In this document: positions 10,730 to 61,411 of the stretch, piece by piece
Layout: each line of letters starts with the position of its first letter
Numbering within the stretch: position 1 is the first letter of the stretch
Source of the DNA: Ignavibacteria bacterium
GTDB taxonomy: Bacteria; Bacteroidota; Ignavibacteria; SZUA-365
Reading direction: 5' to 3'
Length of the DNA stretch: 64,000 nucleotides
Assembly: GCA_002869275.1 (NCBI GenBank)
Contig: PKTF01000131.1
Coordinates: forward strand, 4,892 to 68,891
The notes under the pieces: generated by a model
The model's input: the letters and a program-made list of their open reading frames with translations, nothing else
What the model was told of the DNA's origin: nothing
Database searches by the model: none
Made by a program: the position numbers and the translations under genes

Positions 10730-10743
10730 AAGGGAAGCAGTAT

Positions 10744-12567: not shown

Positions 12568-14169
12568 ATGTTTAAGCAGAAAATTTCCCTTGCCAGCGTT
12601 TTTGTGCTCCTCCTGTTCAGTATACTGATGGGGACGCAGATTCGTGCGATTTCAGAGGATAACATCTACGAGCAGTTCAACAAGTTCAAGGATGTCCTCA
12701 ATTACACGCAAAAGTATTACGTCGACGACGTCAAGGTTTCGGATCTCGTCACGTCGGCAGTGGAAGGGATGCTCAAATCACTCGATCCTCATTCGGTGTA
12801 CATCAGCCCGAAGCAGCTTGAAAAAGTGCAGGAGGATTTCAAGGGGAGCTTCGAAGGAATCGGTATAGAGTTCCGCATCATCAATGACACGATCAACGTC
12901 GCCAATGTGATCTACGGCGGTCCCAGCGAAAAGGCGGGTCTGCTCTCGGGCGACAAGATCGTCGCAATAGACGATGAATCGGCTGTCAAATTCGAAAACA
13001 GCGACGTGCAGAAACGTCTGCGCGGTGAGAAAGGTACAGAAGTTGTCGTGGGCATCATCCGTTCGGGACTTACCGAACCGATCGCCTTCACGATCATCCG
13101 AGACAAGATCCCGCTCTACAGTGTGACCGCGAGCTTCCTCATGGATGACGGCACCGGTTACATGGCGATCAACCGCTTCTCGTCGACGACCTACGAGGAA
13201 TTTCTTACCGGGCTTCGCGACATGAAGACCAAGGGCATGAAGAAGCTCGTACTCGACCTCCGCGGAAATCCCGGCGGCTATCTCGAGCAGTCCTTCCGCA
13301 TGGCGAATGAATTCCTCAATCGCGGCGAAAAAATCGTGTATACCAAGGGACGCCGCACCGATTTCGATGAGAATTTCGTGGCCACCGGCAGCGGTGAATT
13401 TCAGGACCTACCTCTCATTATCATGCTCAGCAATGGCAGCGCGTCCGCGAGTGAAATCGTGGCGGGTGCCGTGCAGGACCATGACCGTGGTCTCATCGTC
13501 GGTGAAACATCGTTTGGAAAAGGCCTTGTTCAGCGGCAGTTCGAACTCGCCGACGGATCCGCCTTCCGCCTTACGACGGCTCGTTACTACACTCCGAGCG
13601 GACGCATGATACAGCGTGCCTACGACGGTTCGGACGAAGATTACTACCGTGGCGCCTATCTGCGTGATGAAAGCAGCGGTGAGAATATCGATCACAGCGA
13701 GGAAGCCGACAGCACCCGGCCCAAGTACTCGACCGACGCCGGTCGCACCGTGTACGGTGGTGGCGGCATCACGCCGGACTACATCGTCACCTACGAAAAC
13801 CTGAAGCCCTATGCCGCACATATGCGCATTCATATTTTCGAATTCGGCGCATCATACATCAGCAAACACGGAGCCGCGCTCCGGGCCAAGTACGAGAATT
13901 CCGATGCAGCCCAGTTTATCCGTGACTTTGACGTCACCGACGCCATGATGAAGGATTTCATTGCCTTCGGCGAATCCAAGGACGTCAAATTCAACGCCGA
14001 GGAATACGAGGTCGACAACCAGTGGATGCGGGCTTCTCTCAAGGCGCAGATCGGACGAACCCTCTTCGGTAACGAAGGACAGTTCCGTGCCATGCTGGCC
14101 GTCGATCCGCAGTTTGAAAAGGCTATCTCACTCTTTCCGGAAGCAAAGAAAATCGCAGGCCTGCATTAA
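12568..14169 (+). CDS. ctp: Carboxyl-terminal processing protease (S41 family)
   Basis: PDZ domain (GIEFRIINDTINVANVIYGGPSEKAGLLSGDKIVAID), catalytic region LVLDLRGNPGGY ... SASASEI ... GETSFGKG. Confidence 0.85.
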   Translation: MFKQKISLASVFVLLLFSILMGTQIRAISEDNIYEQFNKFKDVLNYTQKYYVDDVKVSDLVTSAVEGMLKSLDPHSVYISPKQLEKVQEDFKGSFEGIGIEFRIINDTINVANVIYGGPSEKAGLLSGDKIVAIDDESAVKFENSDVQKRLRGEKGTEVVVGIIRSGLTEPIAFTIIRDKIPLYSVTASFLMDDGTGYMAINRFSSTTYEEFLTGLRDMKTKGMKKLVLDLRGNPGGYLEQSFRMANEFLNRGEKIVYTKGRRTDFDENFVATGSGEFQDLPLIIMLSNGSASASEIVAGAVQDHDRGLIVGETSFGKGLVQRQFELADGSAFRLTTARYYTPSGRMIQRAYDGSDEDYYRGAYLRDESSGENIDHSEEADSTRPKYSTDAGRTVYGGGGITPDYIVTYENLKPYAAHMRIHIFEFGASYISKHGAALRAKYENSDAAQFIRDFDVTDAMMKDFIAFGESKDVKFNAEEYEVDNQWMRASLKAQIGRTLFGNEGQFRAMLAVDPQFEKAISLFPEAKKIAGLH

Positions 14170-14188
14170 TCCACAGGACGCAAAGCGA

Positions 14189-15061
14189 ATGATATCCCGT
14201 CTGAAACGTGGTTTCGCATGGAACCACGTTTCTTTTTTCTCAGCACTGATACTGCTGCTGTGCGTTACGGTAGCGAGCGCACCGGCACAGCAGGGAGGTT
14301 CCAGGCGTTCCTCTCATTCCTCCGCACCCAACCTCGCCGTATTTCAGAAAGGTGAGGAACTGGTGTACGAAGTGAGTTATCTCGGGATCGAACTGGGGAC
14401 GATCCGCTCCCGAGTTGTTTCCGTGGATTCGACACGTGGAAAGCTGAGAATCGGTCTCGAGGGATTCGTACGCACCTACTCCGGAGTTCCTTTCGTTACA
14501 TTGAACACGCTGTTTCGCAGCGTCCTCGGTGATTCCCTTCAATCCGTGGCATTTCGCAACCGTGAATACATACGCAACGATACGGTGTTCAAGCTCATCG
14601 AATACCGGTATTCAACGCGCGATGACGCCGTCTATATCAGTGAAACGCTCAACGACCGTCCCGGCTGGAAACGCAGTGATACTCTCGACCTGGAAGGAAA
14701 ACTGTGGCAGGATGGTCTGTCATTGTTATTTTATGCGCGGGCTTTTGCACATACACGTGGAACGCACAGGGTGCCTGTGCTCATGTACCGCGATAAGGCG
14801 ACGACCACGATTCGTTTTGGTGTCGAGCGCGAGGACGAGGATATCGATGCCTTCGATGAAGACGTGCGCACCATCAAACTTGAAGGAGAAACCGGATTCA
14901 CGGGAATTTTCGGCCTTACGGGAGGTTTCGAGGGTTGGTTCAGTGATGATGTGGCGGCGGTGCCCATCAGCGCGAAAATGCATGTTCTCATCGGAAGCGT
15001 ACGCATCGAATTGCTGAGGTGGAAGAGACGGCATTGGAAACCGCCGCTCGCTGATGATTAG
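14189..15061 (+). CDS. DUF3108 domain-containing secreted protein
   Basis: The track ORF 13961..15061 has a 76-residue N-terminal extension that overlaps ctp out of frame. The real start is the ATG at 14189 (MISRLKRG...), followed by a signal peptide. EELVYEVSYLGIELG matches the DUF3108 YxxxYxGxxxG signature. Confidence 0.7.
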   Translation: MISRLKRGFAWNHVSFFSALILLLCVTVASAPAQQGGSRRSSHSSAPNLAVFQKGEELVYEVSYLGIELGTIRSRVVSVDSTRGKLRIGLEGFVRTYSGVPFVTLNTLFRSVLGDSLQSVAFRNREYIRNDTVFKLIEYRYSTRDDAVYISETLNDRPGWKRSDTLDLEGKLWQDGLSLLFYARAFAHTRGTHRVPVLMYRDKATTTIRFGVEREDEDIDAFDEDVRTIKLEGETGFTGIFGLTGGFEGWFSDDVAAVPISAKMHVLIGSVRIELLRWKRRHWKPPLADD

Positions 15062-36658: not shown

Positions 36659-38395
36659 TTGAGCGCTGAACTCTCCATACATCAGCTTCAGATCGCAGAC
36701 ACGGAGTTCATCGTCTGTGACGTCGAAACCACGGGACTGAGTCCGGACCGTAACCGCCTGACAGAAATCGCGCTGCTGCGTATGCGTGGAAATCAGGTTG
36801 TCGAGCGTTTCGACTCGCTGGTGAATCCCCGGCAGTTCATCCCACCTGAAGTACAGCGACTCACCGGCATTTCCAACGAAATGGTGTACACGGCACCTGA
36901 CGTCGAAGAAGTGATGCCGAAGGTGAAGGACTTCATTGGCGAGGCGGTGTTCGTGGGGCACAACGTACGCTTCGACAGGTCGTTCGTGGACGCGACGCTG
37001 GCACGCTGCTGCATGAAGGCACTGCAGGGACCAAGTCTCTGTACTGCGCGTCTCGCCCGCCGTCTCATACCGAACAAGGGGAAGAAGAACCTCGGTGCTA
37101 TTGCACGTCATTTCAACATCCGCATCCGCGGACGCCATCGCGCAACGGGGGATGCCGAGGCGACAGCGCGCATCCTGACACATTTCCTCACCATTCTCGA
37201 AGAGGAATTCGATATCCACGAAGCGGGGGAGCTGCTCAGTTTCCAGAACCGACAGATCTATCGCATCACCGGCGCCCCAAAATACTTCACGCGTCTGCAG
37301 AGCAATCTTTCAGAACTGCCACACGCCGCTGGTGTCTACTTCTTTCACGATAAACGTGGCGACATTCTGTACATCGGAAAGGCGCGCGATCTGAAGGAGC
37401 GCGTGTCATCATATTTTTACCACAACATCGGCCATACCGAGAAAATCAGGCGGCTTGTCCGCGGTGTGCATGGCATCACCTGGAAAACGACGGAGACGGA
37501 GCTCTCGGCACTGCTCACGGAATCGCGTCTGATCAAGCAGCATCAGCCGTCATACAACACGCAGCTCAAACGCTACCGCAAATACCCTTTCATTCGCATC
37601 GATATGCAGGACGACTGGCCCACCATCGGCTGGTGCTACGATCTTGTGGACGACGGTGCTGAATACTTCGGGCCTTTCCGGTCACGTTTTGCGGTCGAGG
37701 AGGCGCTCGACGGCATCAACAAACTGTTCATGCTTCGTGAATGTGAAGGCACACTCCACCCTGATCCGAAGAACACTCCCTGCCTCTATCACGATATCAA
37801 GCGCTGTGGTGCGCCATGTGCCGCACTCACCAGCGGTGAAGAATACCGGCGTGAAGTCGATGACATCGTTCTGTTTCTGCAGGGTGAGCAAGACAGTGTG
37901 CTGGACCGGCTGCGTCTGCGCATGGAGAAGAGAGCGGAGCAGCTCTACTTTGAGGGCGCTGCTGTTCTGCGCGATCGCATAGAAGCCGTGGAAAAAATCA
38001 TTCGCCAGCAGCAGCTGATGGTCCATTCGGTTCGTCGGCAGAATCTGGTCATCATCACACTGGCCCGTCGCAGCAACGTAGAAGTTCACCTGATCAAGGC
38101 CGGCATGCTTGCAGCGCAGTTCCTTGTGGACCAAAAAGGTTTCTCCCGTGATCAGCTGTTCAGAAGTCTCGAGGACGTGTTTTCCTCACGGCAGGCGGAA
38201 CTGTTCACCGGCCGACAGGAAGACATCGATGAAATGCGCATTATCGCCAGCTGGTGTCTGAACCGCCGTGCCGATTCCCGAATCCTTGACGTGCTTGACG
38301 ACGTGACGATAGAGGAGCTCACAGGCGTGGTTTCGGATGCCATCCTGCACCAGGATGAGGAATTACACACCGGTCAGGCGATGAACGAACAATAA
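36659..38395 (+). CDS. DnaQ-family 3'-5' exonuclease fused to a GIY-YIG (UvrC/Cho-like) nuclease domain
   Basis: Exo I FIVCDVETTGL, Exo II FVGHNVRFDRSF, Exo III HRATGDAEAT. Then GIY-YIG: GVYFFHDKRGDILYIGKARDLKERVSSYF ... and a UvrC-like region. Confidence 0.8.
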   Translation: MSAELSIHQLQIADTEFIVCDVETTGLSPDRNRLTEIALLRMRGNQVVERFDSLVNPRQFIPPEVQRLTGISNEMVYTAPDVEEVMPKVKDFIGEAVFVGHNVRFDRSFVDATLARCCMKALQGPSLCTARLARRLIPNKGKKNLGAIARHFNIRIRGRHRATGDAEATARILTHFLTILEEEFDIHEAGELLSFQNRQIYRITGAPKYFTRLQSNLSELPHAAGVYFFHDKRGDILYIGKARDLKERVSSYFYHNIGHTEKIRRLVRGVHGITWKTTETELSALLTESRLIKQHQPSYNTQLKRYRKYPFIRIDMQDDWPTIGWCYDLVDDGAEYFGPFRSRFAVEEALDGINKLFMLRECEGTLHPDPKNTPCLYHDIKRCGAPCAALTSGEEYRREVDDIVLFLQGEQDSVLDRLRLRMEKRAEQLYFEGAAVLRDRIEAVEKIIRQQQLMVHSVRRQNLVIITLARRSNVEVHLIKAGMLAAQFLVDQKGFSRDQLFRSLEDVFSSRQAELFTGRQEDIDEMRIIASWCLNRRADSRILDVLDDVTIEELTGVVSDAILHQDEELHTGQAMNEQ

Positions 38396-38446: not shown

Positions 38447-40054
38447 TTAAAAGGGGCGAGAGAATCGCAGGACAAGGCTGGGGGATTCGGAGCGGTCGAG
38501 GCGCCATGCCGCACCGATACGGAAGTTTCCGTCTTCACTGCCCAGCGCAACACCGATATCACTTTTCCAGTTATTGAATACTGCGTCGTCGGTCATCGCA
38601 ACATCGAGTGCGCCGTTCGTCACGTCTCGTGCGGTGAGCGGCATCGCTCCGTTGGTCGATCCGGCGTTGGCGAAGAAGATGATGTTCGTGCTGCGGAGTA
38701 CATTCTTTGCCCAGCCGCGGGCTTCATGGACCAGAGTACTGCGGATGATGAGTTCTGCACTGAGAAGCATTACGTGGCTGCCCGCGAATTCCTTGTAACG
38801 GTAGCCAGGCAGGGTACCTGGTCCGCCGAGCTCGAACGCGCGCTGCTGCGGAATGAGTCCGTCACTGAAGCCGCCCCTGAACCGAGTATTGAAATTGAAA
38901 TGCGAACCCAGCGGCTGATACCGGCGAATATCGGCAATCAACTGTGTGAATTCGAAGTCGCCGGCGGCAAACCCACCTGCCATTTCGTACTGCAGCTGTG
39001 CCTCCCAGCCATCCGTCCTGGTGTCGAGACTGGCAAGAGTGGTGAGCCCGGCAGACAGCACGACACTGTTCACGTTGCCGTCGTTGATGTGCGGGTTCGG
39101 ACGGAAGACCTTGTCTCCACCGAAGATCGACCAGTTGGTGGCACGATTCATATTCCCGTAGGTATCGTGTACGTAGGCCGCACTTGCACGGATGTTCAGT
39201 TCGTCCTCTCCGCGATAGTACCACGCCGCCGTGACATTGAAGCCGCGGCGCTCGAAATAGTCGAGGAAATCTTCACGCGCAAGGATAGATGTGATGGTGT
39301 TTTCGTCACGATCGAACGACCACTGATCTTTGGAGTCGGTAAAGCTGTAGCCCTCACCGCTGATCTCGATGATCATATCCTTGAGGTAGAAGGGGATGCC
39401 GAGGCCCAGGCTGTAGCGCCAGGTGTGGTTCGCGAAGCCGTACCCCAGTGAGGCGGTGCTCACGATACGCGGTTTACTGTGCCAGTACAGGCGCTTCGGT
39501 TGCGCGAAACCGAGGTAGAGTCCCTCGACGCGATTATACCTGAGAAAGGATTCCTGCAGGCGCGTGGTGACGGGGAACATCCACGGGAAATTCCCGGGAT
39601 ACTTCTTGAAAAAGTTTTCCTCGAAATTGAATTGGTCTCCTTCAGTGTCATCACTCTGCCACCATGACCATTCGTCATCTTCTTCTTCCCAGCCTTCTTC
39701 CCATTGTTCCCATTCCTCTTCGTCATCCGCCCATTCATCTCCACCGGCGGCAGAGGGATTCACCTGATACTCGAGTGCTTCGAGACGCGCCTCCGCTTTC
39801 GAGATGCGCTGTTCGAGCGTTTCGATTGTACTCTGCTTTTCAGCGTCCGATACGTCACTGTTTTTCAGACGTGTCATTTCCGCTTTGAGGCGGTCCAGCT
39901 CTTCGGTCAGTTTTTTCTGTTCAAGTTGAATTTTCTCGAGTGCTCGCAGACTGTCATCCATGACGGGATCAGTCTGGCTCCAGGCGTATTGCGAGAACAC
40001 GGGGAGGGCGAGCATCAGGATGAGGCATATGCGTAATGTGGCACCAGCTTTCAT
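38447..40054 (-). CDS. Omp85/BamA-like outer-membrane barrel protein with N-terminal coiled coil and acidic Trp-rich segment
   Basis: Signal peptide. Coiled-coil heptads (LEKIQLEQKKLTEELDRLKAEMTRLK ... EARLEALEYQV). Acidic Trp-rich run EWADDEEEWEQWEEGWEEEDDEWSWWQSDD. C-terminal barrel with the RAFELGGPGTLPGYRY motif and terminal Phe. Confidence 0.6.
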   Translation of the reverse strand: MKAGATLRICLILMLALPVFSQYAWSQTDPVMDDSLRALEKIQLEQKKLTEELDRLKAEMTRLKNSDVSDAEKQSTIETLEQRISKAEARLEALEYQVNPSAAGGDEWADDEEEWEQWEEGWEEEDDEWSWWQSDDTEGDQFNFEENFFKKYPGNFPWMFPVTTRLQESFLRYNRVEGLYLGFAQPKRLYWHSKPRIVSTASLGYGFANHTWRYSLGLGIPFYLKDMIIEISGEGYSFTDSKDQWSFDRDENTITSILAREDFLDYFERRGFNVTAAWYYRGEDELNIRASAAYVHDTYGNMNRATNWSIFGGDKVFRPNPHINDGNVNSVVLSAGLTTLASLDTRTDGWEAQLQYEMAGGFAAGDFEFTQLIADIRRYQPLGSHFNFNTRFRGGFSDGLIPQQRAFELGGPGTLPGYRYKEFAGSHVMLLSAELIIRSTLVHEARGWAKNVLRSTNIIFFANAGSTNGAMPLTARDVTNGALDVAMTDDAVFNNWKSDIGVALGSEDGNFRIGAAWRLDRSESPSLVLRFSRPF

Positions 40055-51551: not shown

Positions 51552-54224
51552 TCAGAAGGCGAAGCCCGCGGAAACGTCCACTCGCATTCCATCGCGGGAG
51601 TTGCCGAGTGACGCGCTGATCGTGAAGTCACGTGATACAGGGGCGAGCCAGAGCCCCGCTCCGTATGTCGCATGCCACTGATCTGATTCCTCATCCTCAA
51701 GATAAACGCGCCCGCTTTCGGCGAATGCCAGTATTCCGAGTTCGGATGGGATGATCCAACGCACGTTCGCGAGAAAGCCCCTCCATTCCGCACCGCCATA
51801 AACTGCGGCGTCTCCGGCATAGCGGTTGAGGTCGTATCCCCTGGCGGATTCGATTCCACCGAGAAATGCGGATTCGAAAAAGGGATAATTGCCGCGGTTA
51901 TACTGGCCACCTGCGCGGAGTGCCAGTGTCCAGTCCGTCAGCAGCCTGGCCGAAAGGTAGGTCCGTAGATCGGCGTCAAACGTCTCAAAACGGGAAATGA
52001 GATCAAACAGCTCGGGATAGTGACGAGCTCCGAGACTGAGGTAATATCCGGATGTCGGCCATGTCGCGCTGCTGCGTTGATCGATGGTCAGATCGAGTCC
52101 GACACTCCCGAGTATCATCGGATCGTATCCGTAGGGTTGAATCGTCATGAGATACAGGGCTTCATCATCGGTGTCATTACGGACATGCCGCAGGGAAATG
52201 TCGGTGGAGAGGGTAACCGTCTCACTCAGAAACAGGTGGAGCGCAGAATTCAGGTAGATCTGACTTTGTTTGACGGTATACTCATAGCCCGGATCCTCGA
52301 GCTTGACCGAGTGATTTCCGGCTCCGAAATAGTGCAGGACCTTGAAGTCGGAGAAGCCGGCGGTGAGCGTCACGCTGTGTCTCCGCAGCAATGCCCTCGT
52401 ATCCAGGTTGAATTCCACTTCTCCCAGCAGGCTGGTCGGGGCGAATCCGCCTGTCAGACTCATCCGGTACGCATAGGGATCGCATTTGAAGCCGTACCGA
52501 GTGTATACGGGGCCGCCTCCCAGCAGGATGCCGAGATCGCCGTTGTATGCGCCCGAGATTCCAGGAAGCAGGTCCCACCCCCAGTCGCGCAGGTCAGGTT
52601 CATAGATCTGCTGCGGCGTTTCGGGACTGGGATATTCATTTCTGTCAACAGCGGTTGATGCTCCGCTTGTAATCGCTGTGCGCTTCCCATGATCGTAGAA
52701 ATACGTTTTTGTCTCCGCGCTGGGGATAAACGGGAGGAGTCCCCACAGGCAGCCGTGGACCACGGAGCTGTCGATCAGTCGGTCGCGTCCCGAACCGCCG
52801 AGAACGCGGATGGTCGGACCGTAATCGCTTTCACCGCGCAGAATCGCCACATCGTCGCCGCCTTCCAGATATATCCTGATTTCGTTCGTTTCATCTGCCA
52901 GGTAAACGCGTTCGTGAAAGGGCGGCAGTTCCGGATCCTCCATTGATCGTCCGGCGACGGCGACGCTGCCGTCCGGTCTGCGCATGATCTCCACGAGCTC
53001 ATCTTCCTTGCTGCCGTGAATGTTCACTTCTCGGGCCAGTTCCTCGTAAAAAACACGCACAGCCTCCGGGAGTTTGTCCCGCCGGTTGAGAAGGGTGGAG
53101 AGCAGATGATCGCTTTCCTCACCATGCAGCGCAGCCGGAAGCCTGTTCACGGCATCCGCCAGCAGGTCGTCGGTGAGTACCGACTGCACATGCAGTGCCA
53201 GCGAATCGTACGCGCCACGTGAGAGGGCCGGGAGGTACCGACGATCGAGGTGTCGTCCACTGTAGGTGAGGTATTTGATGCCGGGATAGTCGTTGTCGCA
53301 GCTTTCGATTTGAGGTACCACCACGGTTGACAGCCACGGGATCAGTCCGTCGTACCGGCAGAAGGCCTGGTCGCGGTCTCGCGGAATGGGGTGCCACCAC
53401 CTGATGCCATCCTTTTCGAAGCGCGCCCAGCGCCACTGATCGGTGTGTCGGTCCCAGTCTCCCATGAACATGTCGACGATGCGCGCTTTCAGGTATTCCC
53501 GGGCATCGACCCTCTCGTCGGTGTTTTTTTCCAGTTTTTCGAACATCGTGAATGTTCCCACGACTTTGTCCGATCCACCGAAACCATCGTCGCTGTCCTC
53601 ACGTTCGTCCGGATGCACTTCGAGCATACCCAGGAGACCCGCGAAGGAGGCGCGGAATTCCCCCAGTTCAGGGCTATCGGGCAGAATGACGACCGTGGGC
53701 GCGGCATTGAGCGTTCCCGTGCTTTCAAGTATCGGACTGGCAACGAGTGCCCCGAACGGATTTGCCGTGCTGATCAGATCCTGCATGATATCTGATACGA
53801 ACGTGTTCCTCAGATTTTCTTCCAGGATCTTGGAAGGATCCTTATTCAGCGAACGGAACTTGTACTCGAGTCCGTCCGCTGCTTTGAAACGCAGTGATCT
53901 GGTCTGGAACCCGCCGCCTTTACGGTATGCCCGGAGTCCGCCTGCAAATGCGGAGAGGTCGATAACGGGTACGCGGATGGGGATGGTCCAGTGTGCTCTC
54001 CAGAGGTCGCCGAAAAACAATCGGTGCAGCGTCCCGGCAGCGTATTCCTCTCCGGGAATGACCATACGCCACTCCATGACGTCCACGTCGGGATTGGTCT
54101 GTTCTGGTCGGGTTTCCTGCTGAGCGATCAGAGACGGGTGTCCGACAATGACAATGGCACACAGGATCGGTATGACCTGGCTGAGCAGCTTTCGAAAGCG
54201 ATCCAACGCCTGAGAACTCTGCAT
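51552..54224 (-). CDS. Omp85/BamA-like outer-membrane barrel protein with large unknown N-terminal domain
   Basis: Signal peptide. About 500-aa N-terminal region with Trp/His-rich blocks (MGDWDRHTDQWRWARFEKDGIRWWHPIPRDRD). C-terminal barrel FLGGIESARGYDLNRYAGD ... VDVSAGFAF. Confidence 0.6.
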   Translation of the reverse strand: MQSSQALDRFRKLLSQVIPILCAIVIVGHPSLIAQQETRPEQTNPDVDVMEWRMVIPGEEYAAGTLHRLFFGDLWRAHWTIPIRVPVIDLSAFAGGLRAYRKGGGFQTRSLRFKAADGLEYKFRSLNKDPSKILEENLRNTFVSDIMQDLISTANPFGALVASPILESTGTLNAAPTVVILPDSPELGEFRASFAGLLGMLEVHPDEREDSDDGFGGSDKVVGTFTMFEKLEKNTDERVDAREYLKARIVDMFMGDWDRHTDQWRWARFEKDGIRWWHPIPRDRDQAFCRYDGLIPWLSTVVVPQIESCDNDYPGIKYLTYSGRHLDRRYLPALSRGAYDSLALHVQSVLTDDLLADAVNRLPAALHGEESDHLLSTLLNRRDKLPEAVRVFYEELAREVNIHGSKEDELVEIMRRPDGSVAVAGRSMEDPELPPFHERVYLADETNEIRIYLEGGDDVAILRGESDYGPTIRVLGGSGRDRLIDSSVVHGCLWGLLPFIPSAETKTYFYDHGKRTAITSGASTAVDRNEYPSPETPQQIYEPDLRDWGWDLLPGISGAYNGDLGILLGGGPVYTRYGFKCDPYAYRMSLTGGFAPTSLLGEVEFNLDTRALLRRHSVTLTAGFSDFKVLHYFGAGNHSVKLEDPGYEYTVKQSQIYLNSALHLFLSETVTLSTDISLRHVRNDTDDEALYLMTIQPYGYDPMILGSVGLDLTIDQRSSATWPTSGYYLSLGARHYPELFDLISRFETFDADLRTYLSARLLTDWTLALRAGGQYNRGNYPFFESAFLGGIESARGYDLNRYAGDAAVYGGAEWRGFLANVRWIIPSELGILAFAESGRVYLEDEESDQWHATYGAGLWLAPVSRDFTISASLGNSRDGMRVDVSAGFAF

Positions 54225-54363
54225 GGGGGGGAGCCGTATCTACATGTCACATGAATTGCTTCAATATACAATGAAAATGGAATATCATGTTTTCCCATGC
54301 AAGCATGTGTATCCTCCAGTCTTGTTCTGTATCAGGCAGAAAGTCTATTTTTCACCTGTGACT

Positions 54364-55233
54364 ATGTATAACCTCCACTCGATACGACCTGCCGGCAATG
54401 CCGCCGCCGTGCTCCTGCCAGTCCTGTTGTTCACCGCGATTGTTCTTCCCCTTTTTGTGAGCGGATCCTTCGCTCAGGAGGCGGAGGAACGGGGGATGGA
54501 CGACATCATCATTGATGACGTCATCATCCTCGGAGAGGATGGACTCGGGTACCTGCTCGCACCGTTGAGTTTCTCCGGAAGCGACTGGGCACTGACAGGC
54601 GGACTGCTCGGAGGCGGCGGGCTGCTCTTTGCACTGGATGAAGACATCCAGGCAATACCGAGACGAAACCAGAACGAGGACGTGTTGGACGTCACCCGGA
54701 CATTGAACTGGGGGGGACATCTGCCGAGCGTGGAAATCGGGACGGGCTTCGTCTACCTCACCGGACTGCTCTCGGGAAATGAGGAAATCCGCGTCACGGG
54801 GCGCATGCTCGCACAGACGCTGATTTATTCGGGATCGGTGTATCTCGTTCTGCGCAGGCTTGTCGGACGGAGCCGACCGGAGGTGCGGGAGAGTGCGTAT
54901 GATTTCGGCTTTCTCCGTTCCGGGGATCAGCATTACTCGTTTCCCTCGGGGCATACCGTCGTGGCCGTCTCATGGGCCACGGTGCTTGCGGGACGCTTCG
55001 ACCACTGGGCGGCTTCCTTGCTCCTGTATTCGGCAGCCGGCGCGGTGGGACTGGCACGTATCTACCAGGACTTTCACTGGGCATCCGATGTTTTTACCGG
55101 AGCACTCATAGGATTTTCGGCAGGCATGTTTGTACGCCGGCAGGAAGAGCGCCGCCAGGCGCAGACAGGGGAAACGTCGTCCTGGTCGCTGCTGCCGACG
55201 GGAAACGGATTATCGCTCATTATTCGCCTATAG
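54364..55233 (+). CDS. PAP2-family (type 2 phosphatidic-acid phosphatase) membrane phosphatase
   Basis: KLVGRSRP ... PSGHT ... SRxxxxxHWASD are the three PAP2 motifs. Start chosen at the ATG at 54364 to avoid an out-of-frame overlap with the upstream gene. Confidence 0.7.
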   Translation: MYNLHSIRPAGNAAAVLLPVLLFTAIVLPLFVSGSFAQEAEERGMDDIIIDDVIILGEDGLGYLLAPLSFSGSDWALTGGLLGGGGLLFALDEDIQAIPRRNQNEDVLDVTRTLNWGGHLPSVEIGTGFVYLTGLLSGNEEIRVTGRMLAQTLIYSGSVYLVLRRLVGRSRPEVRESAYDFGFLRSGDQHYSFPSGHTVVAVSWATVLAGRFDHWAASLLLYSAAGAVGLARIYQDFHWASDVFTGALIGFSAGMFVRRQEERRQAQTGETSSWSLLPTGNGLSLIIRL

Positions 55234-55245
55234 AACGGAGCAACA

Positions 55246-55740
55246 ATGAAGACGCTGTATATCGTCCGCCATGCGAAGTCCAGCTGGAAGCATGATAACC
55301 TGACAGATTTCGAGCGGCCGCTCAACAAACGCGGTCACGGTGATGCACCGATGATGGGACGAATTCTGGCTGAACGCGGAACGACGATCGGACTGCTCCG
55401 CAGCAGTCCGGCAAACCGCGCGCTGACCACCGCACGCATGCTGGCGCAGGAGCTGGACTTTCCGCTCGATTCCATCGAAACCGACGAAGGCATGTACGGT
55501 GCCAGTCACCGGCAGCTGTTTGAAACCGTGCGCAGCTTCCCGGATGAGGTTGCTCAGGCGATGATCGTCGGACACAATCCGGGATCACAGCTGTTCGCAG
55601 AGTACCTGACGGATTTTCCTGAAAGCAACCTGCCGACCTGCGGTATTGTCTGCATTGACTTCGAATGCGAACAGTGGGAGAATATCCAGCCCGGCAGCGG
55701 GACGCTCCGTTTCTACGAATATCCCCGACGTCACAAATGA
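55246..55740 (+). CDS. sixA: Histidine-phosphatase family protein (SixA-like phosphohistidine phosphatase)
   Basis: LYIVRHAKS (RHG-type catalytic His) and a second His in MIVGHNPG. Confidence 0.75.
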   Translation: MKTLYIVRHAKSSWKHDNLTDFERPLNKRGHGDAPMMGRILAERGTTIGLLRSSPANRALTTARMLAQELDFPLDSIETDEGMYGASHRQLFETVRSFPDEVAQAMIVGHNPGSQLFAEYLTDFPESNLPTCGIVCIDFECEQWENIQPGSGTLRFYEYPRRHK

Positions 55741-55753
55741 TCACCGAGATACC

Positions 55754-57817
55754 ATGAGCGTTATGAACGAGAGTTCCCCGTTTTTTGACCGTGAATTGAG
55801 CTGGGTGGCCTTTAACGGGCGCGTACTGCAGGAAGCTGCCGCACCTTCGGTTCCGCTATACGAGCGGCTGAAGTTTCTCGCGATATACTCATCCAACCTC
55901 GATGAGTTTTTCCGTGTGCGCGTCGCCGGCATTCGCAGCCTCATGTCTCTGAAAAAGAGCAAACGTGAGAAACTCGCCCTTGACCCCGCGGAATTGCTCC
56001 AACGTATTTACCAGGCCGTCGACCGGCAGCAGGAAGAGTTCGGTCGGATTTTCAGAGAGCTGTTACAGGAACTCGAAGCACACGGGGTGATGCTGATCAG
56101 GGAAGAAGAGGCGCTTTCAGAGAAGCAGATGATCTTTCTCCGGGAGTACTTTCGCGAAAAAATTTCCGCGTTCATCGAGAGTGAAATCCTTGATGATGAG
56201 GACAGTGCTTTTCTTCGGAACAGGGCGCTGTACTTTACCGTCGCGCTTCGCCACCTGAAGGATGAAGACAGGCAGGAGGTCGGAATGGTGACAATTCCTT
56301 CCGACGCCTGTTCGCGTTTTATCGAGCTGCCCGCGCCGGAAGGGGAACACCACATCATATTTCTCGACGACGCGGTGCGGTTCAACCTCGTGAGCCTGTT
56401 TCCGGACCACGATGTTGTCGGGGCGTATGCCATCAAGCTCAATCGCGATGCCGATCTGCACATCGAGGACGAGTTCGCCGGTGATCTCGTCAAGAAAATA
56501 CACCAGGCGCTGCAGCGCCGGGAGACGGGCGTCCCCGCCCGTTTCCTCTACGATCCGGCGATGCCTGCCGACCTGCTTACTTCCGTGCGCAAGCGCTTCG
56601 GGTTGAAGAAGGAAGATCTGTTCCCGGGCGGGCGCTATCATAACTTCCATGATTTCTTCGGGTTCCCGAATCCCCTGGGTGCGGTCGTCAGGGATGAAGA
56701 ACTGCCCGCGCTCGGGTACCCCCCGTTCGATGCGGCGGAAAGCATGTTTGATGCCGTCGCCGAGCGCAGTCATCTCCTGCATTTTCCGTACATGCGCTAC
56801 GGACCGGTGGTACGCTTTCTCGAAGAGGCCGCGTCGGACGCGCACGTCGAGCAGATATCCATCACGCTCTACCGTGTGGCCTCCCACTCCGCGATCGCGG
56901 AAGCCCTCATCGCGGCGGCGGAGAGCGGAAAAAAGGTCAATGTCTTCATGGAAATCAAGGCCCGTTTCGATGAAGAAGCGAACATCTACTGGTCGGAAAA
57001 AATGAAGGAAGCGGGCGTCAACGTCATGTACAGTTTCCCGGGACTGAAGGTGCACGCGAAACTGTACCACATTGTCCGCCGCGAGTCCGGAAAAAAGCGC
57101 GGGTATGCATTTCTGGGTACGGGGAATTTCAACGAGAAGACGGCGGGATTGTACTGCGACCACGGGTACTTCACCGCAAGTCCGGAAGTCCTCAAGGAGG
57201 TCGCGGCCGTATTCGCCATCCTTGCGAAACGAAAGGTCGGATACGAATTCAGCACGCTGCTAGTTGCACAGTTCAACCTTCGGCGTGAATTCAACCGCCT
57301 CATCGATCGCGAGATCGAACATGCGAAGGCCGGCCGCCAGGCGTCGATCATCATGAAGATGAACAGTCTCGAGGATCCGAAGATCATACGGAGGCTGTAC
57401 CGCGCGTCTCAGGCAGGTGTACGTATCACCCTTATCATCCGCGGCATCTGCTGCCTCGTTCCCGGAGTCCCCGGCATCAGTGAGACCATTGTGGTCCGCA
57501 GCATCGTTGACCGCTATCTCGAGCATGCCCGGGTCTATGTTTTCGGGAACGATGGTGATGAAGAAGTGTGGCTCGCCTCGGCGGACATGATGCGCAGGAA
57601 CCTCAACAGGCGGATCGAAGTGGCCTTCCCGGTGCGGGAAGCGGACCTGCGCGCAGAGATCCTCGAAATCATCCGGCTGCAACTGGCCGACAACTCCAAG
57701 GCACGAAGCATCGACAGCGCGCAGATGAACACGTTCATCCGGGACGATTCCGGAACGACCGTGCGGGCGCAGGTCGATACCTGGCGCTTTTTGCATGATT
57801 TTCACAGAGACGCCTGA
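55754..57817 (+). CDS. ppk1: Polyphosphate kinase 1
   Basis: FFDRELSWVAFNGRVLQEA ... LDEFF; two phospholipase-D-like HKD-type domains (VHAKL ... GTGNFN). Start at the ATG at 55754 (the track ORF is N-terminally extended). Confidence 0.9.
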   Translation: MSVMNESSPFFDRELSWVAFNGRVLQEAAAPSVPLYERLKFLAIYSSNLDEFFRVRVAGIRSLMSLKKSKREKLALDPAELLQRIYQAVDRQQEEFGRIFRELLQELEAHGVMLIREEEALSEKQMIFLREYFREKISAFIESEILDDEDSAFLRNRALYFTVALRHLKDEDRQEVGMVTIPSDACSRFIELPAPEGEHHIIFLDDAVRFNLVSLFPDHDVVGAYAIKLNRDADLHIEDEFAGDLVKKIHQALQRRETGVPARFLYDPAMPADLLTSVRKRFGLKKEDLFPGGRYHNFHDFFGFPNPLGAVVRDEELPALGYPPFDAAESMFDAVAERSHLLHFPYMRYGPVVRFLEEAASDAHVEQISITLYRVASHSAIAEALIAAAESGKKVNVFMEIKARFDEEANIYWSEKMKEAGVNVMYSFPGLKVHAKLYHIVRRESGKKRGYAFLGTGNFNEKTAGLYCDHGYFTASPEVLKEVAAVFAILAKRKVGYEFSTLLVAQFNLRREFNRLIDREIEHAKAGRQASIIMKMNSLEDPKIIRRLYRASQAGVRITLIIRGICCLVPGVPGISETIVVRSIVDRYLEHARVYVFGNDGDEEVWLASADMMRRNLNRRIEVAFPVREADLRAEILEIIRLQLADNSKARSIDSAQMNTFIRDDSGTTVRAQVDTWRFLHDFHRDA

Positions 57818-57838
57818 GGCCATGCTGCCTGTGCTGCA

Positions 57839-59155
57839 TTGAATCCCAGCAGGCGATACCCTATTTTCCATCATTCCACGGACACTATCCATGTGGTGCA
57901 CATGACGGACAACAGTACAACCATCACCGACAGGGCCTCAAGTTTCGTACAGAGGCACTTCGCGGAGCATCATGATGAGGCGTTGACCTATCACAACATC
58001 GCGCATACCATGGAGGTTGTCGATGCCGCTGCACGTATCGGAGAAGCCTGTGGATTGACCGGTGCCGATCTCGAGGTCGTCATACTGGCTGCGTGGTTCC
58101 ACGATGTCGGTATCACAGAGGTGTACCTCAATCATGAAGATCGAAGTGTCGAGATTGCTGAACGCTTTCTGCGGGAGCATGATTATCATCCTGAAAACAT
58201 CAGAGCGGTTTCGCGCTGTATCATGGTGACCTCCGTGCATGTGCATCCGAGCACCCTGCAGGAAGAGGTGATCTGCGACGCGGATCTCGAGCATCTGGGC
58301 CGAAAGACGTTCTGGAAACGCGCGGAACTGCTGCGCCATGAGTGGGAGGTCAAACTCGGCAAGGTCTTTTCGGACCTCGATTGGCTGCGCAGCCAGCAGC
58401 GCTTCCTTCAGGAGTTTTCGTTTTACACAGAGGAAGCGAAAACCGCACGACTGCGGAGGTTGGAGAAGAACAGGGCAAAAGTCGATCAGGTACTGGAATC
58501 TCTCGAGAAAGGTGGCACCATGGCTGAAGCGATAGAACGCATTGATGGAAAGAAAGACGGTAAAGGGAAGAACAAGGTCAAGACCGATTTTATGGGACGA
58601 GGGGACCGTGGCGTTGAAACCATGTTCCGTACGACATCCAGGAACCACGTTACCTTCAGTTCGATGGTCGACAGCAAAGCGAATATCATGCTGAGTATCA
58701 ACGCCCTTGTGATATCGGTCGTCATCAGCGTTCTGTTTCGAAAGCTGGATACGAATCCCTACATGGCTATTCCGACCTTCCTGTTCCTCGGAGTCTGTCT
58801 TACCACCATCGTGTTTGCCGTACTCGCGTCACGTCCGAAAGTGTCTTCCGGGACGTTCACACGGGAGGATATAGAAAACAAGGCTGTGAACCTGCTGTTC
58901 TTCGGGAATTTCTACAACGTCTCTGTCGATGATTTCGAATGGGGCATGCAGGAAATGCTCAAGGACAAGGACTACCTGTACGGGAGCATGATACGGGATT
59001 TCTACTACCTGGGCCAGGTACTCGGCAAAAAGTACCGCTACCTGAGAATTTCCTACAACGTCTTCATGTACGGCTTCGTCGCATCCATCCTGCTCTACGT
59101 CATCATGTTCATGGTTTTTGCGAACCAGCCCATCGACCTTGTCCCTTTTGAATGA
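57839..59155 (+). CDS. HD-domain phosphohydrolase fused to a C-terminal Pycsar-effector-like (DUF5706-type) transmembrane domain
   Basis: HD motifs YHNIAHTMEV ... AAWFHDVG ... ICDADLEHLG; Lys-rich linker; three or four predicted TM helices (NIMLSINALVISVVISVLF, YMAIPTFLFLGVCLTTIVFAVLA, VFMYGFVASILLYVIMFMVF). An alternative start is the Met at 57902. Confidence 0.65.
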   Translation: MNPSRRYPIFHHSTDTIHVVHMTDNSTTITDRASSFVQRHFAEHHDEALTYHNIAHTMEVVDAAARIGEACGLTGADLEVVILAAWFHDVGITEVYLNHEDRSVEIAERFLREHDYHPENIRAVSRCIMVTSVHVHPSTLQEEVICDADLEHLGRKTFWKRAELLRHEWEVKLGKVFSDLDWLRSQQRFLQEFSFYTEEAKTARLRRLEKNRAKVDQVLESLEKGGTMAEAIERIDGKKDGKGKNKVKTDFMGRGDRGVETMFRTTSRNHVTFSSMVDSKANIMLSINALVISVVISVLFRKLDTNPYMAIPTFLFLGVCLTTIVFAVLASRPKVSSGTFTREDIENKAVNLLFFGNFYNVSVDDFEWGMQEMLKDKDYLYGSMIRDFYYLGQVLGKKYRYLRISYNVFMYGFVASILLYVIMFMVFANQPIDLVPFE

Positions 59156-59255
59156 AGAATTGTAAGCCAGAAGGCTGACGAGGGTGCTGAGAATATCAGT
59201 TTATGGACTGATATAGCGGCATGTAATATCAGCGTACAGACTGATACGGACATAG

Positions 59256-59316
59256 AAAAATCAGGCCGCGGCCTGATGATTTGATCGATCCGCCCCCGGT
59301 TTTCATGCCGGGGGCG
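59256..59316 (-). terminator. Tandem hairpins terminating the convergent HD-domain gene and the NHL-repeat lipoprotein gene
   Basis: TCAGGCCGCGGCCTGA palindrome (59261-59276) with AAAAA on its plus-strand 5' side, which reads TTTTT after the hairpin on the minus strand. Second hairpin CGCCCCCGG ttttcatg CCGGGGGCG (59291-59316). Confidence 0.55.
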
Positions 59317-59329
59317 TTGCCATTTCAGA

Positions 59330-60406
59330 TCAATCGAGTTCCGTCGAGAGGACGAAACGCAGTATCCTGTTGTTTCCCGTGTCGGCGATGTACAATGTGC
59401 GGTCGAAGTATGCGACGCCTTCGGGCTCATCAAACTGTTCCTTTCCTCCGAAAGCCTGTGTGATGAAGCCGGAGGAGGTGAAGCGGAACAGGCTGTCCAG
59501 TCCCGCGTCGATAACGAAAATATTTCCCGCGTCGTCGGCGGTAATGTCTTCAGGGCGGTCAAAGAGACTGACGCGCAGCAAATCGAGGTCGCCGTCCCTC
59601 GCCGGACTGTAGAACGATTCCCATTGCGTGATATCACCGGTGGTGCGCTGAGTAATCCACTGTGCACGGAACAGCGATTTCTCACCTTTCTGTGTGAAGA
59701 GAAAATCACTGGAGTACGGAGAGATGGTCGATATGCTGGTCGGGACGGTCATCGTTGCGAGGCCGGTACCGTCGATACTGAGGCCGGGCCATTCCACGCG
59801 CGGCCGCAGCTCGTCTTCTCTGTTGAACAGCATGACAGCGTCGTCGGGATCGACGAGGCTGCTGTTGTTCGGTCCGGTCCGCGTCACATAATAACTGTTG
59901 TCACCGAGAACGGTGACGCCCGTGAATCTCCGGTCGGGATTCAGGGCATCGAAGTAGACGCGTTCCACGCGGGCGCCGGCGATGCTGTGTCCGGCATCGA
60001 CGAGATGGACGCGGTATATCGCACCGAATGTCGCCTGTCTGCCGCCGATCGTCGTATCGAATTCGCCGCAGACCAGAAGGTCGAGACGGTAGTCCTGGGA
60101 AATTGCCGTCGGACGGAGTATCTCCGATGAGCTTCCGATCACCGTTCCGGCAACGTCGAGCATGGTCACACGATGCGCCCCGCGTTCAGCGACATAAATG
60201 AACGGCTCAAAACCGAGATGGACGTCAGCCGGTTCCTCGAAACCTGTCCAGATCGGCTGCTGCAGGACATAGGAGGTGTCGCCGTAGCTGTTCGGAGGCG
60301 CAGTCGTACCGAGATCGGAGGCATCGAAGGTGTCTCCGCATGCACTCGCCAGCAGTGCTGTCAGGGCGATCAAAAGGGGGAACGTGTATTTCGTCTTGTG
60401 TACCAT
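59330..60406 (-). CDS. NHL-repeat beta-propeller lipoprotein
   Basis: Lipobox LLASAC; repeated NHL-type blocks (GNIFVIDAGLDSLFRF, PEGVAYFDRTLYIADTGNNRILRF). Confidence 0.65.
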   Translation of the reverse strand: MVHKTKYTFPLLIALTALLASACGDTFDASDLGTTAPPNSYGDTSYVLQQPIWTGFEEPADVHLGFEPFIYVAERGAHRVTMLDVAGTVIGSSSEILRPTAISQDYRLDLLVCGEFDTTIGGRQATFGAIYRVHLVDAGHSIAGARVERVYFDALNPDRRFTGVTVLGDNSYYVTRTGPNNSSLVDPDDAVMLFNREDELRPRVEWPGLSIDGTGLATMTVPTSISTISPYSSDFLFTQKGEKSLFRAQWITQRTTGDITQWESFYSPARDGDLDLLRVSLFDRPEDITADDAGNIFVIDAGLDSLFRFTSSGFITQAFGGKEQFDEPEGVAYFDRTLYIADTGNNRILRFVLSTELD

Positions 60407-60409
60407 GTG

Positions 60410-61411
60410 TCATAGTCCCAGGCGTAGGGTAATACGATGAACGCCGCCAAGGCGTCCGAATTCAGCGTACGCGTAATCCACGCCGCCGCGTCCGAAACCG
60501 ATCGGGGCGTTGATGCCCGCACCGGCAGTCAGTCCTTCTTCGTCGACGTTCAGCTTGTATCCGGCGCGTACAAAGAAGAGTTCGTTCCAGGCATACTCCG
60601 CACCGACGGATACGTTTTCGCTGTTGTCGTTCGGATGGTTGAGCTGAATGGACGTCGTCAGCCGGTTGTAGTCATCCTCATAGGGCTCGAAGGCGAATCC
60701 GATACGGAACATCGTTGGAGGAGAAAACTCCTGGAAGGAAGAAACCTCTTCCCCGCGCGGGAGGTCGACGGTGCCTTCGGGAGCCACGTTGTTTCCAAAA
60801 TTTGAAACGGTGACCGAAAACCGTGTGCTCCCGAGTCCGGTCCAGTAATACGTCCCCAGGTCGATCATGACCGCGCGCGTTTTCAGCACGTCAATGGTTT
60901 CCTCCACGTATCGTACTGTGGCACCGAAGGAAAACTGTGCGGTGAGCTGCCGCGCGTAAGAGAGTCCGATCCCGATGTCGCCGTAGCTGAAATAGCGGCC
61001 GGTTCCGAGCGGCTGTGTCTCGGTGCGCACTTCCATGTCCTCGGTATGCAGAGCGGTGAAGGAAAGTCCGACCGCGTCTGATTCCGACAGGCGGTAGATA
61101 CCCGCAACGAATTCGTGCTGCAGGTCCACCACCCAGTTCGTATGCGAAAACATCGCTTCGTGTCCCGCACACTGGACCATACCGGCGGGATTGTAATGGA
61201 GCGAGGACGCATCATCGGCGACGGCTATGAACGCTTCGGCCATGCCGACTGCTCGTGCGCCTGTCCCGATCTTGAGGAACTGCAGGGAGGAAATGCCCGC
61301 GCGCTGTCCGCCGAGAAGCGGTATCAGCTGCGCCTGGGAGGATGAAATGAGAGTCAGCAGCAGCAGTGCCGTTGCGGATATTCGCAGAAATGTGGTCATA
61401 ACATGTTTCAT
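60410..61411 (-). CDS. PorV/PorQ-family T9SS-associated outer-membrane protein
   Basis: Signal peptide, then FLKIGTGARAVGMAEAFIAVADDASSLHYNPAGM, which matches the conserved N-terminal block of the PorV/PorQ (FadL-like) family; 333 aa. Confidence 0.6.
   Translation of the reverse strand: MKHVMTTFLRISATALLLLTLISSSQAQLIPLLGGQRAGISSLQFLKIGTGARAVGMAEAFIAVADDASSLHYNPAGMVQCAGHEAMFSHTNWVVDLQHEFVAGIYRLSESDAVGLSFTALHTEDMEVRTETQPLGTGRYFSYGDIGIGLSYARQLTAQFSFGATVRYVEETIDVLKTRAVMIDLGTYYWTGLGSTRFSVTVSNFGNNVAPEGTVDLPRGEEVSSFQEFSPPTMFRIGFAFEPYEDDYNRLTTSIQLNHPNDNSENVSVGAEYAWNELFFVRAGYKLNVDEEGLTAGAGINAPIGFGRGGVDYAYAEFGRLGGVHRITLRLGL

Follow-up and report, generated by a model that had tools for sequence, protein, structure and literature searches.

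An HD phosphohydrolase fused to a Pycsar-type membrane domain is a housekeeping protein of Bacteroidota-type bacteria with recurrent polyphosphate and envelope gene neighbours

The PycTM effectors of Pycsar antiphage systems are standalone proteins of ~160 amino acids (aa), encoded in two-gene defence operons and described as membrane-disrupting on binding of a cyclic nucleotide monophosphate (PMC11224242). Pycsar effectors respond to cCMP or cUMP, and the PycTM fold has so far been understood only as the suicide effector of cyclic-pyrimidine immunity. Here we analysed a 64-kb stretch of DNA (the window) from a metagenome-assembled genome (MAG) labelled 'Ignavibacteria bacterium' (GCA_002869275.1, contig PKTF01000131.1), in which one gene, which we call HD-PycTM, fuses an HD phosphohydrolase to a PycTM membrane domain. 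We read HD-PycTM as a non-immune, housekeeping member of the PF18967 family, fixed as a core gene in Bacteroidota, Ignavibacteriota and Chlorobiota-type bacteria. Unlike Pycsar effectors, it carries an N-terminal HD enzyme, has no adjacent cyclase, is single-copy and vertically inherited, and lies in a housekeeping, polyphosphate and envelope context. The architecture is already in databases, where it is labelled, misleadingly, as a Pycsar effector; its housekeeping character and conserved neighbourhood are the aspects for which we found no paper.

The open reading frame (ORF) spans positions 57839 to 59155 on the forward strand and encodes 438 aa when read from the TTG at 57839. The start is probably the ATG at 57902, which gives a product of 417 aa. 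This product is identical over its full length (100%) to C0600_05560, the GenBank protein of the MAG, and the gene call in a relative of 81% identity is likewise 417 aa long from the equivalent ATG, likewise 84 nucleotides (nt) after ppk1. An exact-sequence look-up with the window protein turned up no entry. In the window the gap to ppk1 is 84 nt from the ATG or 21 nt from the TTG. Below, Pfam match residues of the window protein follow the 438-aa numbering, and ligands, motifs and helices follow the 417-aa numbering. We confirmed that the protein comprises an N-terminal HD phosphohydrolase domain, a charged linker and a C-terminal PF18967 PycTM domain (coordinates of all features are collected in the table below).

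The initial annotation, made from the sequence alone, had likened the C-terminal part to the DUF5706/Pycsar-effector family, and a hidden Markov model (HMM) search bears this out. PF18967 matched residues 301-412 far above its threshold (E 2.3e-35, 121.6 bits against a cut-off of 27.2), and the profile was covered fully (positions 1-107 of 107) within the C-terminal 182 aa. The PADLOC models for PycTM and the CBASS '2TM effector' matched residues ~270-427 (E 4e-16 to 5e-5) over ~140 of 160 positions, the PycTM models being aligned from position 18 to 156 of 160. The C-terminal domains of 36 out of 36 relatives also matched PF18967. The span shared with PycTM effectors consists of the helix before the first transmembrane (TM) segment, TM1, TM2, a cytoplasmic insert and TM3. 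Of the three to four TM helices originally suggested, hydropathy and AlphaFold2 (AF2) give three and no fourth. The module begins with a pre-TM amphipathic helix (RGxETMF, ADxKAN), followed by TM1, TM2, a ~70-aa cytoplasmic insert with the motifs TRP and NLLFFGNF, D366, G371 and K377-Y378, and TM3. In an alignment (A1) of 64 relatives taken from 50%-identity clusters, the invariant or nearly invariant residues were D257, K259 and A260 of ADxKAN before TM1; P291, T310-R311-P312, N330 and F333-F334-G335-N336-F337 of NLLFFGNF further on; and Y360, D366, G371, K377-Y378 and G391 towards the C terminus.

AF2 predicted an all-helical protein with a mean predicted local distance difference test score (pLDDT) of 91.3 and a predicted template modelling score (pTM) of 0.63. 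The predicted helices 235-281, 286-310 and 356-406 correspond to the pre-TM helix with TM1, to TM2, and to a long helix that ends as TM3, with the cytoplasmic insert at residues 311-355; modelled alone, the C-terminal domain adopted the same fold (pLDDT 86.8). We read the topology as N terminus in and C terminus out (predicted periplasmic), because the N-terminal enzyme has no signal peptide, because K/R clusters ahead of TM1 and between TM2 and TM3 in the sequence, and because in one relative, the triple fusion P0264, a β-propeller without a signal peptide directly follows TM3; elsewhere this propeller is encoded on its own, and its N terminus resembles a signal peptide. The linker that precedes the module contains 26% K+R (alignment residues 196-236), compared with 12.7% over the whole protein. 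Its length ranged from 24 to 55 aa among the 64 relatives, with a median net charge of +3, and AF2 confidence dropped at residues 223-232. We considered a polybasic linker that binds polyphosphate; the K/E-rich composition and the modest median charge weaken this idea. A PDB sequence search with the PycTM-domain profile returned no meaningful match and no solved relative. The ppk1 context prompted a comparison with the TM domains (Vtc1/3/4) of the yeast VTC polyphosphate polymerase/channel and with DUF202. We regard the resemblance as non-specific: hhalign of the PycTM profile against Vtc1 (sequence validated against 8i6v) gave a probability of 0.1, and Pfam scans of PycTM domains gave no DUF202 signal.

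The N-terminal domain has the complete HD motif (H...HD...D) that had been annotated. PF01966 matched residues 54-122 (E 2e-5, 25.3 bits against a cut-off of 22), and NCBIfam contributed just one HDIG match, below threshold. H31, D126 and E147 were invariant in the 64 relatives, the other ligands were kept in 57 (H35), 57 (H67) and 61 (D68), and conservation extended to H78 (56/64) and E79 (59/64). This ligand set matches the mononuclear H..HD..D pattern of YpgQ, which is formed by H29, H58, D59 and D124 (PMC8177086). AF2 pLDDT was ~98 across the domain. The best solved relatives by profile were 2pq7, 3djb, 3gw7 (Escherichia coli YedJ) and 3dto (E 5e-8 to 1e-6), single-domain HD proteins that are little or not characterised, and Foldseek added 2pjq and Bacillus subtilis YpgQ (5dqw; Foldseek E 2e-3). 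YpgQ and YedJ act as Mn-dependent (d)NTP pyrophosphohydrolases, and AtCN-PDE1, a plant orthologue, is a cGMP phosphodiesterase (PMC6692503, PMC8177086). Through 2pq7, 3djb, 3gw7, 3dto and 5dqw, these enzymes are the best sequence and fold matches of the HD domain, a remote relationship that may hint at nucleotide substrates. YpgQ and YedJ are soluble, single-domain enzymes, whereas HD-PycTM carries a membrane module.

HD-PycTM is not specific to this genome. With the window protein as query we obtained more than 4085 homologues, of which the best 120 are all 394-434 aa long and nearly all combine HD with PF18967. Among 50%-identity representatives, 5009 matched at E≤1e-3, 610 of them reached E≤1e-30, and almost all of the 150 listed are full length, at 385-430 aa. 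A Flavobacteriaceae member used as query matched 7755 proteins at E≤1e-20, including those of named isolates (Mariniflexile, Flavivirga, Gaetbulibacter, Algibacter and others). The gene is also found in Cytophagales (Flexithrix, Fulvitalea, Persicobacter, Chondrinema), Ignavibacteriales, Melioribacteraceae and Chlorobiota-labelled MAGs. In NCBI the relatives are named 'Pycsar system effector family protein', 'DUF5706 domain-containing protein' or 'HD domain-containing protein'. Each locus has one copy, and a tblastn search of the PycTM domain against plasmids, which was meant to gather canonical Pycsar effectors, found just three further HD fusions, on Cytophagales megaplasmids. Relatives at 60-81% identity are syntenic with the window (Omp85-like, PAP2, SixA-like, PPK1, HD-PycTM, NHL, PorV-like, TonB receptor), and their HD-PycTM has diverged about as far as the neighbouring genes. 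The conserved synteny, the neighbour-like divergence and the uniform architecture indicate an old, vertically inherited core gene rather than a mobile defence gene. Where Pycsar systems have an effector beside PycC in a patchy, mobile or defence-island context, no class III cyclase was found in the 64 kb of the window and core-gene synteny is conserved. The initial annotation had seen a standalone fusion outside any Pycsar operon; the missing class III cyclase and the housekeeping context agree with this, and the fusion belongs to a very large family.

To describe the neighbourhood, we assembled 98 loci: the window, 13 GTDB species genomes, 80 metagenome loci (38-49% identity) and 4 exact-sequence look-ups. 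Their ORFs were clustered without prior assumptions and neighbour counts, taken within 10 kb, were then refined by HMMs; 42 loci with at least 5 kb on each side are referred to as well flanked. An Omp85-like outer-membrane protein of 850-1245 aa was the commonest neighbour, present in 50 of the 98 loci (28 of the 42 well-flanked ones, and within 300 bp in 20). It was followed by PPK1 in 30 loci (14 well flanked; 14 within 300 bp), an SdiA-regulated/phytase-like β-propeller in 29 (16; 16), a SixA-like phosphatase in 28 (16; 19), a ~790-aa protein with a borderline GAF match in 23 (13; 15), PAP2 in 18 (11; 1), a ~238-aa protein in 10 (5; 9) and class III cyclases in 8 (6; 2). At least one of the Omp85-like protein, PPK1 and the SixA-like phosphatase was present in 34/42 well-flanked loci. 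For a single-copy gene, roughly 0.5% of loci would be expected to have it within 10 kb by chance.

The initial annotation had proposed checking whether the fusion tracks with ppk1 in other genomes, and it does so in these 30 loci. PPK1 lies within ~1.2 kb of HD-PycTM in 29 of them. Two deep clades and at least four arrangements retain this proximity: on the strand of HD-PycTM, PPK1 can precede it or follow it after SixA, and on the opposite strand it can be divergent upstream or convergent downstream. Given the chance expectation, the ppk1 link is real, yet it is one facet of a wider neighbourhood: the Omp85-like gene is commoner and the SixA-like gene about equally frequent, so that ppk1 is not the most general partner. 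Clustering by HD-PycTM identity gave four groups. The Ignavibacteria-like group, which holds the window, has a SixA-like gene with or without PPK1, PAP2 and the Omp85-like gene; the Cytophagales-like group has the propeller and the Omp85-like gene upstream, and PPK1 in 11 loci without SixA; the Flavobacteriaceae group has the Omp85-like gene upstream and the ~790-aa gene downstream; and a small fourth group, not assigned to a taxon, has no conserved neighbours. Among named strains, Flavivirga eckloniae (CP025791.1) and Fulvitalea axinellae (pFA2) carry the conserved neighbourhood. In P0264, HD, PycTM and the SdiA-regulated/phytase-like β-propeller form one polypeptide, a fusion that physically ties the membrane module to a periplasmic neighbour.

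The Omp85-like gene is frequently divergent and immediately upstream of HD-PycTM. The N-terminal ~640 aa of its product have no Pfam match and contain the motif GDWDRHxDQWRWA ... PxPRDRDQAF, which is conserved from Ignavibacteria-like genomes to Flavobacteriaceae. Fusion to a metallophosphoesterase is frequent: long forms (~1230 aa) carry an additional N-terminal Metallophos domain. No PDB relative was found by sequence, and a literature search on Omp85 with metallophosphoesterase yielded nothing useful. The ~790-aa protein, convergent and just downstream of HD-PycTM in the Flavobacteriaceae-like group, has no confident domain (GAF 22.0 bits against a cut-off of 22.4; weak YeeD match). The ~238-aa protein is lipoprotein-like, with weak GW/SH3-like matches only, and its gene is convergent and directly downstream in 10 Ignavibacteria-like loci.

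The initial annotation reported no nucleotide cyclase in the window. This holds for class III: neither tblastn with a neighbouring cyclase nor an HMM of the eight neighbouring cyclases (E≤10) found a match in the 64 kb, and other cyclase classes were not searched systematically. In five independent loci elsewhere, however, a membrane-anchored, multi-TM class III cyclase (PF00211) lies 0-2.6 kb from HD-PycTM. These cyclases form two subfamilies whose homology extends along the whole protein, TM region included; the accompanying HD-PycTM proteins share only 36-53% identity with one another, and the pairs sit inside the Omp85-like/propeller/PPK1 neighbourhood rather than in defence islands. The association is a minority one and is unlikely to be due to chance. 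It points to a cyclic mononucleotide as a possible input of the HD-PycTM module, and because some relatives adjoin such a cyclase, a cyclic-nucleotide link has to be kept in view for the family.

PF18967 proteins occur in yet another setting. A scan of IMG/VR with the PycTM-domain alignment returned 150 loci, of which 80 were retained, all encoding standalone proteins of 193-240 aa. Within 6 kb of the phage gene, no HD domain and no cyclase turned up in any of the 80. These phage genes (contigs L102-L180) have a conserved gene order, lying directly upstream of the large-terminase gene and downstream of a gene for a secreted 371-aa protein. The motifs ADxKANIMI, [FY]FG[NH]F and KY are common to the phage standalone and the HD-fused proteins. 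At least three settings of PF18967 can thus be told apart: defence effectors linked to cyclases, phage standalone genes and the HD-fused housekeeping branch. Conservation of the cytoplasmic motifs in all three speaks for a single functional site held in common, most simply one for ligand binding or gating.

We tentatively favour a model, possible rather than probable in our estimate, in which HD-PycTM is a nucleotide-responsive, non-lethal inner-membrane module that carries its own hydrolase and tunes phosphate, polyphosphate and envelope handling. Data underlie four of its elements: the protein's architecture and topology, its housekeeping status and the gene linkage. The PycTM module, whose architecture is like that of Pycsar effectors, would bind a nucleotide-type signal on its conserved cytoplasmic face. 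The tethered HD domain would hydrolyse this ligand, which may be a nucleoside polyphosphate, or else a cyclic mononucleotide that a membrane-anchored class III cyclase supplies. If the HD domain does hydrolyse the ligand of its own module, activation would be transient rather than lethal, making HD-PycTM a self-resetting version of the PycTM device. The state of the module may be passed to envelope partners, namely the periplasmic phytase-like propeller and the Omp85-like/metallophosphoesterase outer-membrane protein, and may also be passed to PPK1 and the SixA-like phosphatase, tuning phosphate and polyphosphate handling. What we infer in this scheme is the ligand, the substrate of the HD domain and the output. 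A precedent for the general design exists in the PgpH-type 7TM-HD proteins, membrane HD phosphodiesterases that hydrolyse c-di-AMP. They too fuse an HD nucleotide hydrolase to a multi-helix membrane module and have a housekeeping signalling role, but the domain order is opposite (HD is N-terminal in HD-PycTM), there are seven TM helices rather than three, and we found no sequence relationship.

Several observations weigh against this model. Conserved neighbours are missing altogether from seven well-flanked loci out of 42 and from an entire clade, class III cyclases are linked in only ~7% of loci and are absent from the window, and the PADLOC PycC models match the neighbouring cyclases only at the generic class III level, so these matches do not mark them as pyrimidine cyclases. 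P0264 is known from a single 8.8-kb contig. In the predicted structure, the long flexible linker and the modest pTM would suit a plain membrane tether as well as allosteric coupling. The similarity of the HD domain to YpgQ and YedJ is remote (~20% identity, E ~1e-7), so their substrate cannot be transferred. Finally, our literature search found no paper on the HD-PycTM family and no biochemical or genetic data for any member.

An alternative that we regard as unlikely makes the HD domain a polyphosphatase (exo- or endo-) anchored in the membrane, or else a hydrolase of (p)ppGpp through which polyphosphate is controlled, partnering PPK1 and the SixA-like phosphatase; PycTM would then be a mere anchor or oligomerisation module at the site where PPK1 makes polyphosphate. 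SixA is a recognised member of polyphosphate operons beside PPX and CHAD (PMC12995831, PMC10892726, PMC10734472). With the canonical operon (ppk, ppx, sixA, CHAD) the window shares an adjacent, co-directional ppk1 and SixA-like gene; it differs in having no PPX/GppA and, instead, HD-PycTM, PAP2 and an Omp85-like protein. A phmmer search with E. coli PPX, a query that was validated against 1u6z and picks up distant PPX chains in the PDB, found no PPX/GppA homologue in any of the 98 loci (~1.2 Mb), an absence that covers the loci and not whole genomes. By position, HD-PycTM thus takes the slot that PPX holds elsewhere. The gene directly follows the sixA-like gene and ppk1 with no terminator between them, PPK1, where present, nearly always lies close by, and SixA is typical of polyphosphate operons (PMC12995831). 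HD enzymes cleave phosphoanhydrides, YpgQ and SpoT being given as diphosphatases (PMC8177086); the linker is rich in lysine, and Foldseek matched the HD domain weakly to the HD-like C-domain of PPX/GppA. Those C-domain matches are not significant (E 0.1-1), however, ppk1 is not nearby in two-thirds of the well-flanked loci, and the cytoplasmic PycTM motifs are conserved beyond what an anchor would need. It also counts against a polyphosphatase that we know of no HD-domain enzyme of this kind. The data do not separate this alternative from the nucleotide-responsive module that we favour; the substrate of the HD domain is what discriminates between them.

If the domain instead resembles its closest solved and characterised relatives in function, HD-PycTM could be a membrane-tethered nucleotide pyrophosphohydrolase of the YpgQ/YedJ type (PMC8177086, PMC6692503) that serves house-cleaning, with PycTM as a passive anchor and a neighbourhood without functional meaning. 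The flexible linker would suit a tether, and one clade and several further loci lack conserved neighbours. We nevertheless consider this explanation rather improbable, as the linkage survives repeated rearrangement in three deep clades, a fusion to the propeller partner exists, the polar PycTM residues D257, K259, N330, G335 and K377 are invariant or nearly so, and the soluble YpgQ and YedJ need no membrane domain. It is highly improbable that HD-PycTM is an abortive-infection effector of the Pycsar/CBASS kind, activated by a cyclase elsewhere in the genome, with HD as a second toxic or regulatory activity. The PF18967 and PADLOC PycTM/2TM-effector matches, the NCBI naming and the few relatives with an adjacent class III cyclase are what such an effector would predict, but no class III cyclase was found in the window, neither defence nor mobile-element genes lie nearby, core-gene synteny is conserved across families and classes, and more than 600 clusters at 50% identity have a uniform, single-copy architecture. 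The adjacent-cyclase pairs themselves lie inside the conserved Omp85-like/propeller neighbourhood and not in a defence island.

A more far-reaching extension, which we put forward as a long shot, is that HD-PycTM is the inner-membrane part of a previously unrecognised trans-envelope phosphate/polyphosphate system of the Fibrobacterota-Chlorobiota-Bacteroidota (FCB) superphylum, a nucleotide-gated conduit laid out like the eukaryotic VTC channel. PPK1, reset by the SixA-like phosphatase, would make polyphosphate at the membrane; an oligomer of the three-helix PycTM module would act as the nucleotide-gated conduit, controlled or trimmed by the tethered HD domain; and the periplasmic phytase-like propeller and the outer-membrane metallophosphoesterase/Omp85-like protein would complete the path. 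Antiphage Pycsar effectors and phage PycTM genes could then be stripped-down derivatives of a housekeeping gate.

Thousands of HD-PycTM proteins of the FCB superphylum are already labelled 'Pycsar system effector' automatically. If the largest and most conserved branch of PF18967 is a housekeeping protein that carries an HD hydrolase and is linked with ppk1, sixA-like and envelope phosphoesterase genes, counts of defence systems in Bacteroidota-type bacteria risk inflation wherever pipelines count lone PycTM matches. The branch would also provide a non-lethal system, amenable to genetics, for finding out what PycTM binds and how it acts on the membrane; it would point to a missing polyphosphate-control component in a phylum whose ppk1 clusters lack ppx; and it would add another immune effector that shares ancestry with a core cellular module. 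A fold regarded as an immune effector would become a core part of envelope and polyphosphate biology throughout the superphylum, without amounting to a new kind of element.

In the window, the placement of the gene right after sixA and ppk1, with PAP2 upstream, was annotated correctly, as judged by ORFs and Pfam. PAP2 is probably the first gene, and HD-PycTM the last, of a co-directional PAP2-sixA-ppk1-HD-PycTM string, with gaps of 12, 13 and 84 nt; in canonical polyphosphate operons this last place belongs to PPX. The longest ppk1 ORF begins with a TTG at 55646 and so shares 95 nt with the 3' part of the SixA-like gene; relatives (gene call of 684 aa in one) and gene calls make a start at ~55754-55763 likely, 13-22 nt after the SixA-like gene. 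That gene is 'SixA-like' only, as it scores 48.5 bits against TIGR00249 (sixA), under the equivalog cut-off of 74.5. We saw no terminator-like site between ppk1 and HD-PycTM; the G+C-rich hairpin listed in the table lies between the convergent HD-PycTM and NHL-repeat genes. An Rfam search for RNA elements and attenuators over 53500-60500 gave zero matches, and a sigma-70 promoter scan did no better than shuffled sequence, the model being one that may not apply to the host phylum.

Table. Positions of HD-PycTM, its domains and its neighbours in the window and in related loci
Feature	Sequence	Coordinates	Strand	Basis or remark
HD-PycTM gene (417 aa + stop)	window	57902..59155	+	ORF extends 5' to TTG 57839
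Cytoplasmic HD phosphohydrolase domain, ~residues 8-200	window	57923..58501	+	Pfam, conservation, AF2
Charged K/E-rich linker, variable length, ~residues 201-235	window	58502..58606	+	composition, low pLDDT
PF18967 (PycTM) module	window	58607..59152	+	Pfam, PADLOC, alignment, AF2
TM1, residues 259-283	window	58676..58750	+	hydropathy; within AF2 helix 235-281
TM2, residues 286-313	window	58757..58840	+	hydropathy; AF2 helix 286-310
TM3, residues 383-412	window	59048..59137	+	hydropathy; end of AF2 helix 356-406
Divergent Omp85-like outer-membrane protein, 890 aa	window	51552..54224	-	Pfam Omp85
Integral-membrane PAP2 phosphatase	window	54223..55233	+	Pfam PAP2 E 2.6e-19
SixA-like histidine phosphatase (His_Phos_1)	window	55246..55740	+	Pfam E 1.5e-8
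ppk1	window	55754..57817	+	four PPK Pfam domains, E 1e-69 to 1e-34
G+C-rich hairpin, likely terminator region	window	59260..59277	.	
Omp85-like protein, further example	L053	6211-9909	-	
Omp85-like protein, further example	L181	2972-6676	-	
~790-aa protein	L053	11222-13612	-	
~790-aa protein	L060	11215-13584	-	
~790-aa protein	L181	12957-15329	-	
~238-aa lipoprotein-like protein	L022	11252-11965	-	
P0264 triple fusion	L100	57-2012	+	
Class III cyclase	L095	4514-5614	+	24 bp downstream of HD-PycTM, same strand
Class III cyclase	L098 (Fulvitalea axinellae pFA2)	9799-11007	+	262 bp downstream of HD-PycTM, same strand
Class III cyclase	L049	11137-12519	-	abuts HD-PycTM, convergent
Class III cyclase	L025	13244-14500	-	2 kb from HD-PycTM
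Class III cyclase	L016 (also L017)	13834-14883 (L016)	-	2.6 kb from HD-PycTM
Phage standalone PF18967-like gene	L134	5956-6621	+	
Phage standalone PF18967-like gene	L118	1057-1647	+	

No defence or mobile-element genes were found near HD-PycTM among the window genes examined (36.6-64 kb); the others are housekeeping genes such as asd and those for an amidohydrolase, TonB-dependent receptors and peptidases. A second, shorter Omp85-superfamily protein (535 aa; 38447-40054, reverse strand), with a weak DUF5686 match and a weak score against the Omp85-like HMM, is encoded ~12 kb upstream of the 890-aa one. Next to it, at 36659-38395 on the forward strand, lies a gene for a 578-aa protein that combines RNase_T (DnaQ-like exonuclease), GIY-YIG and UVR domains.

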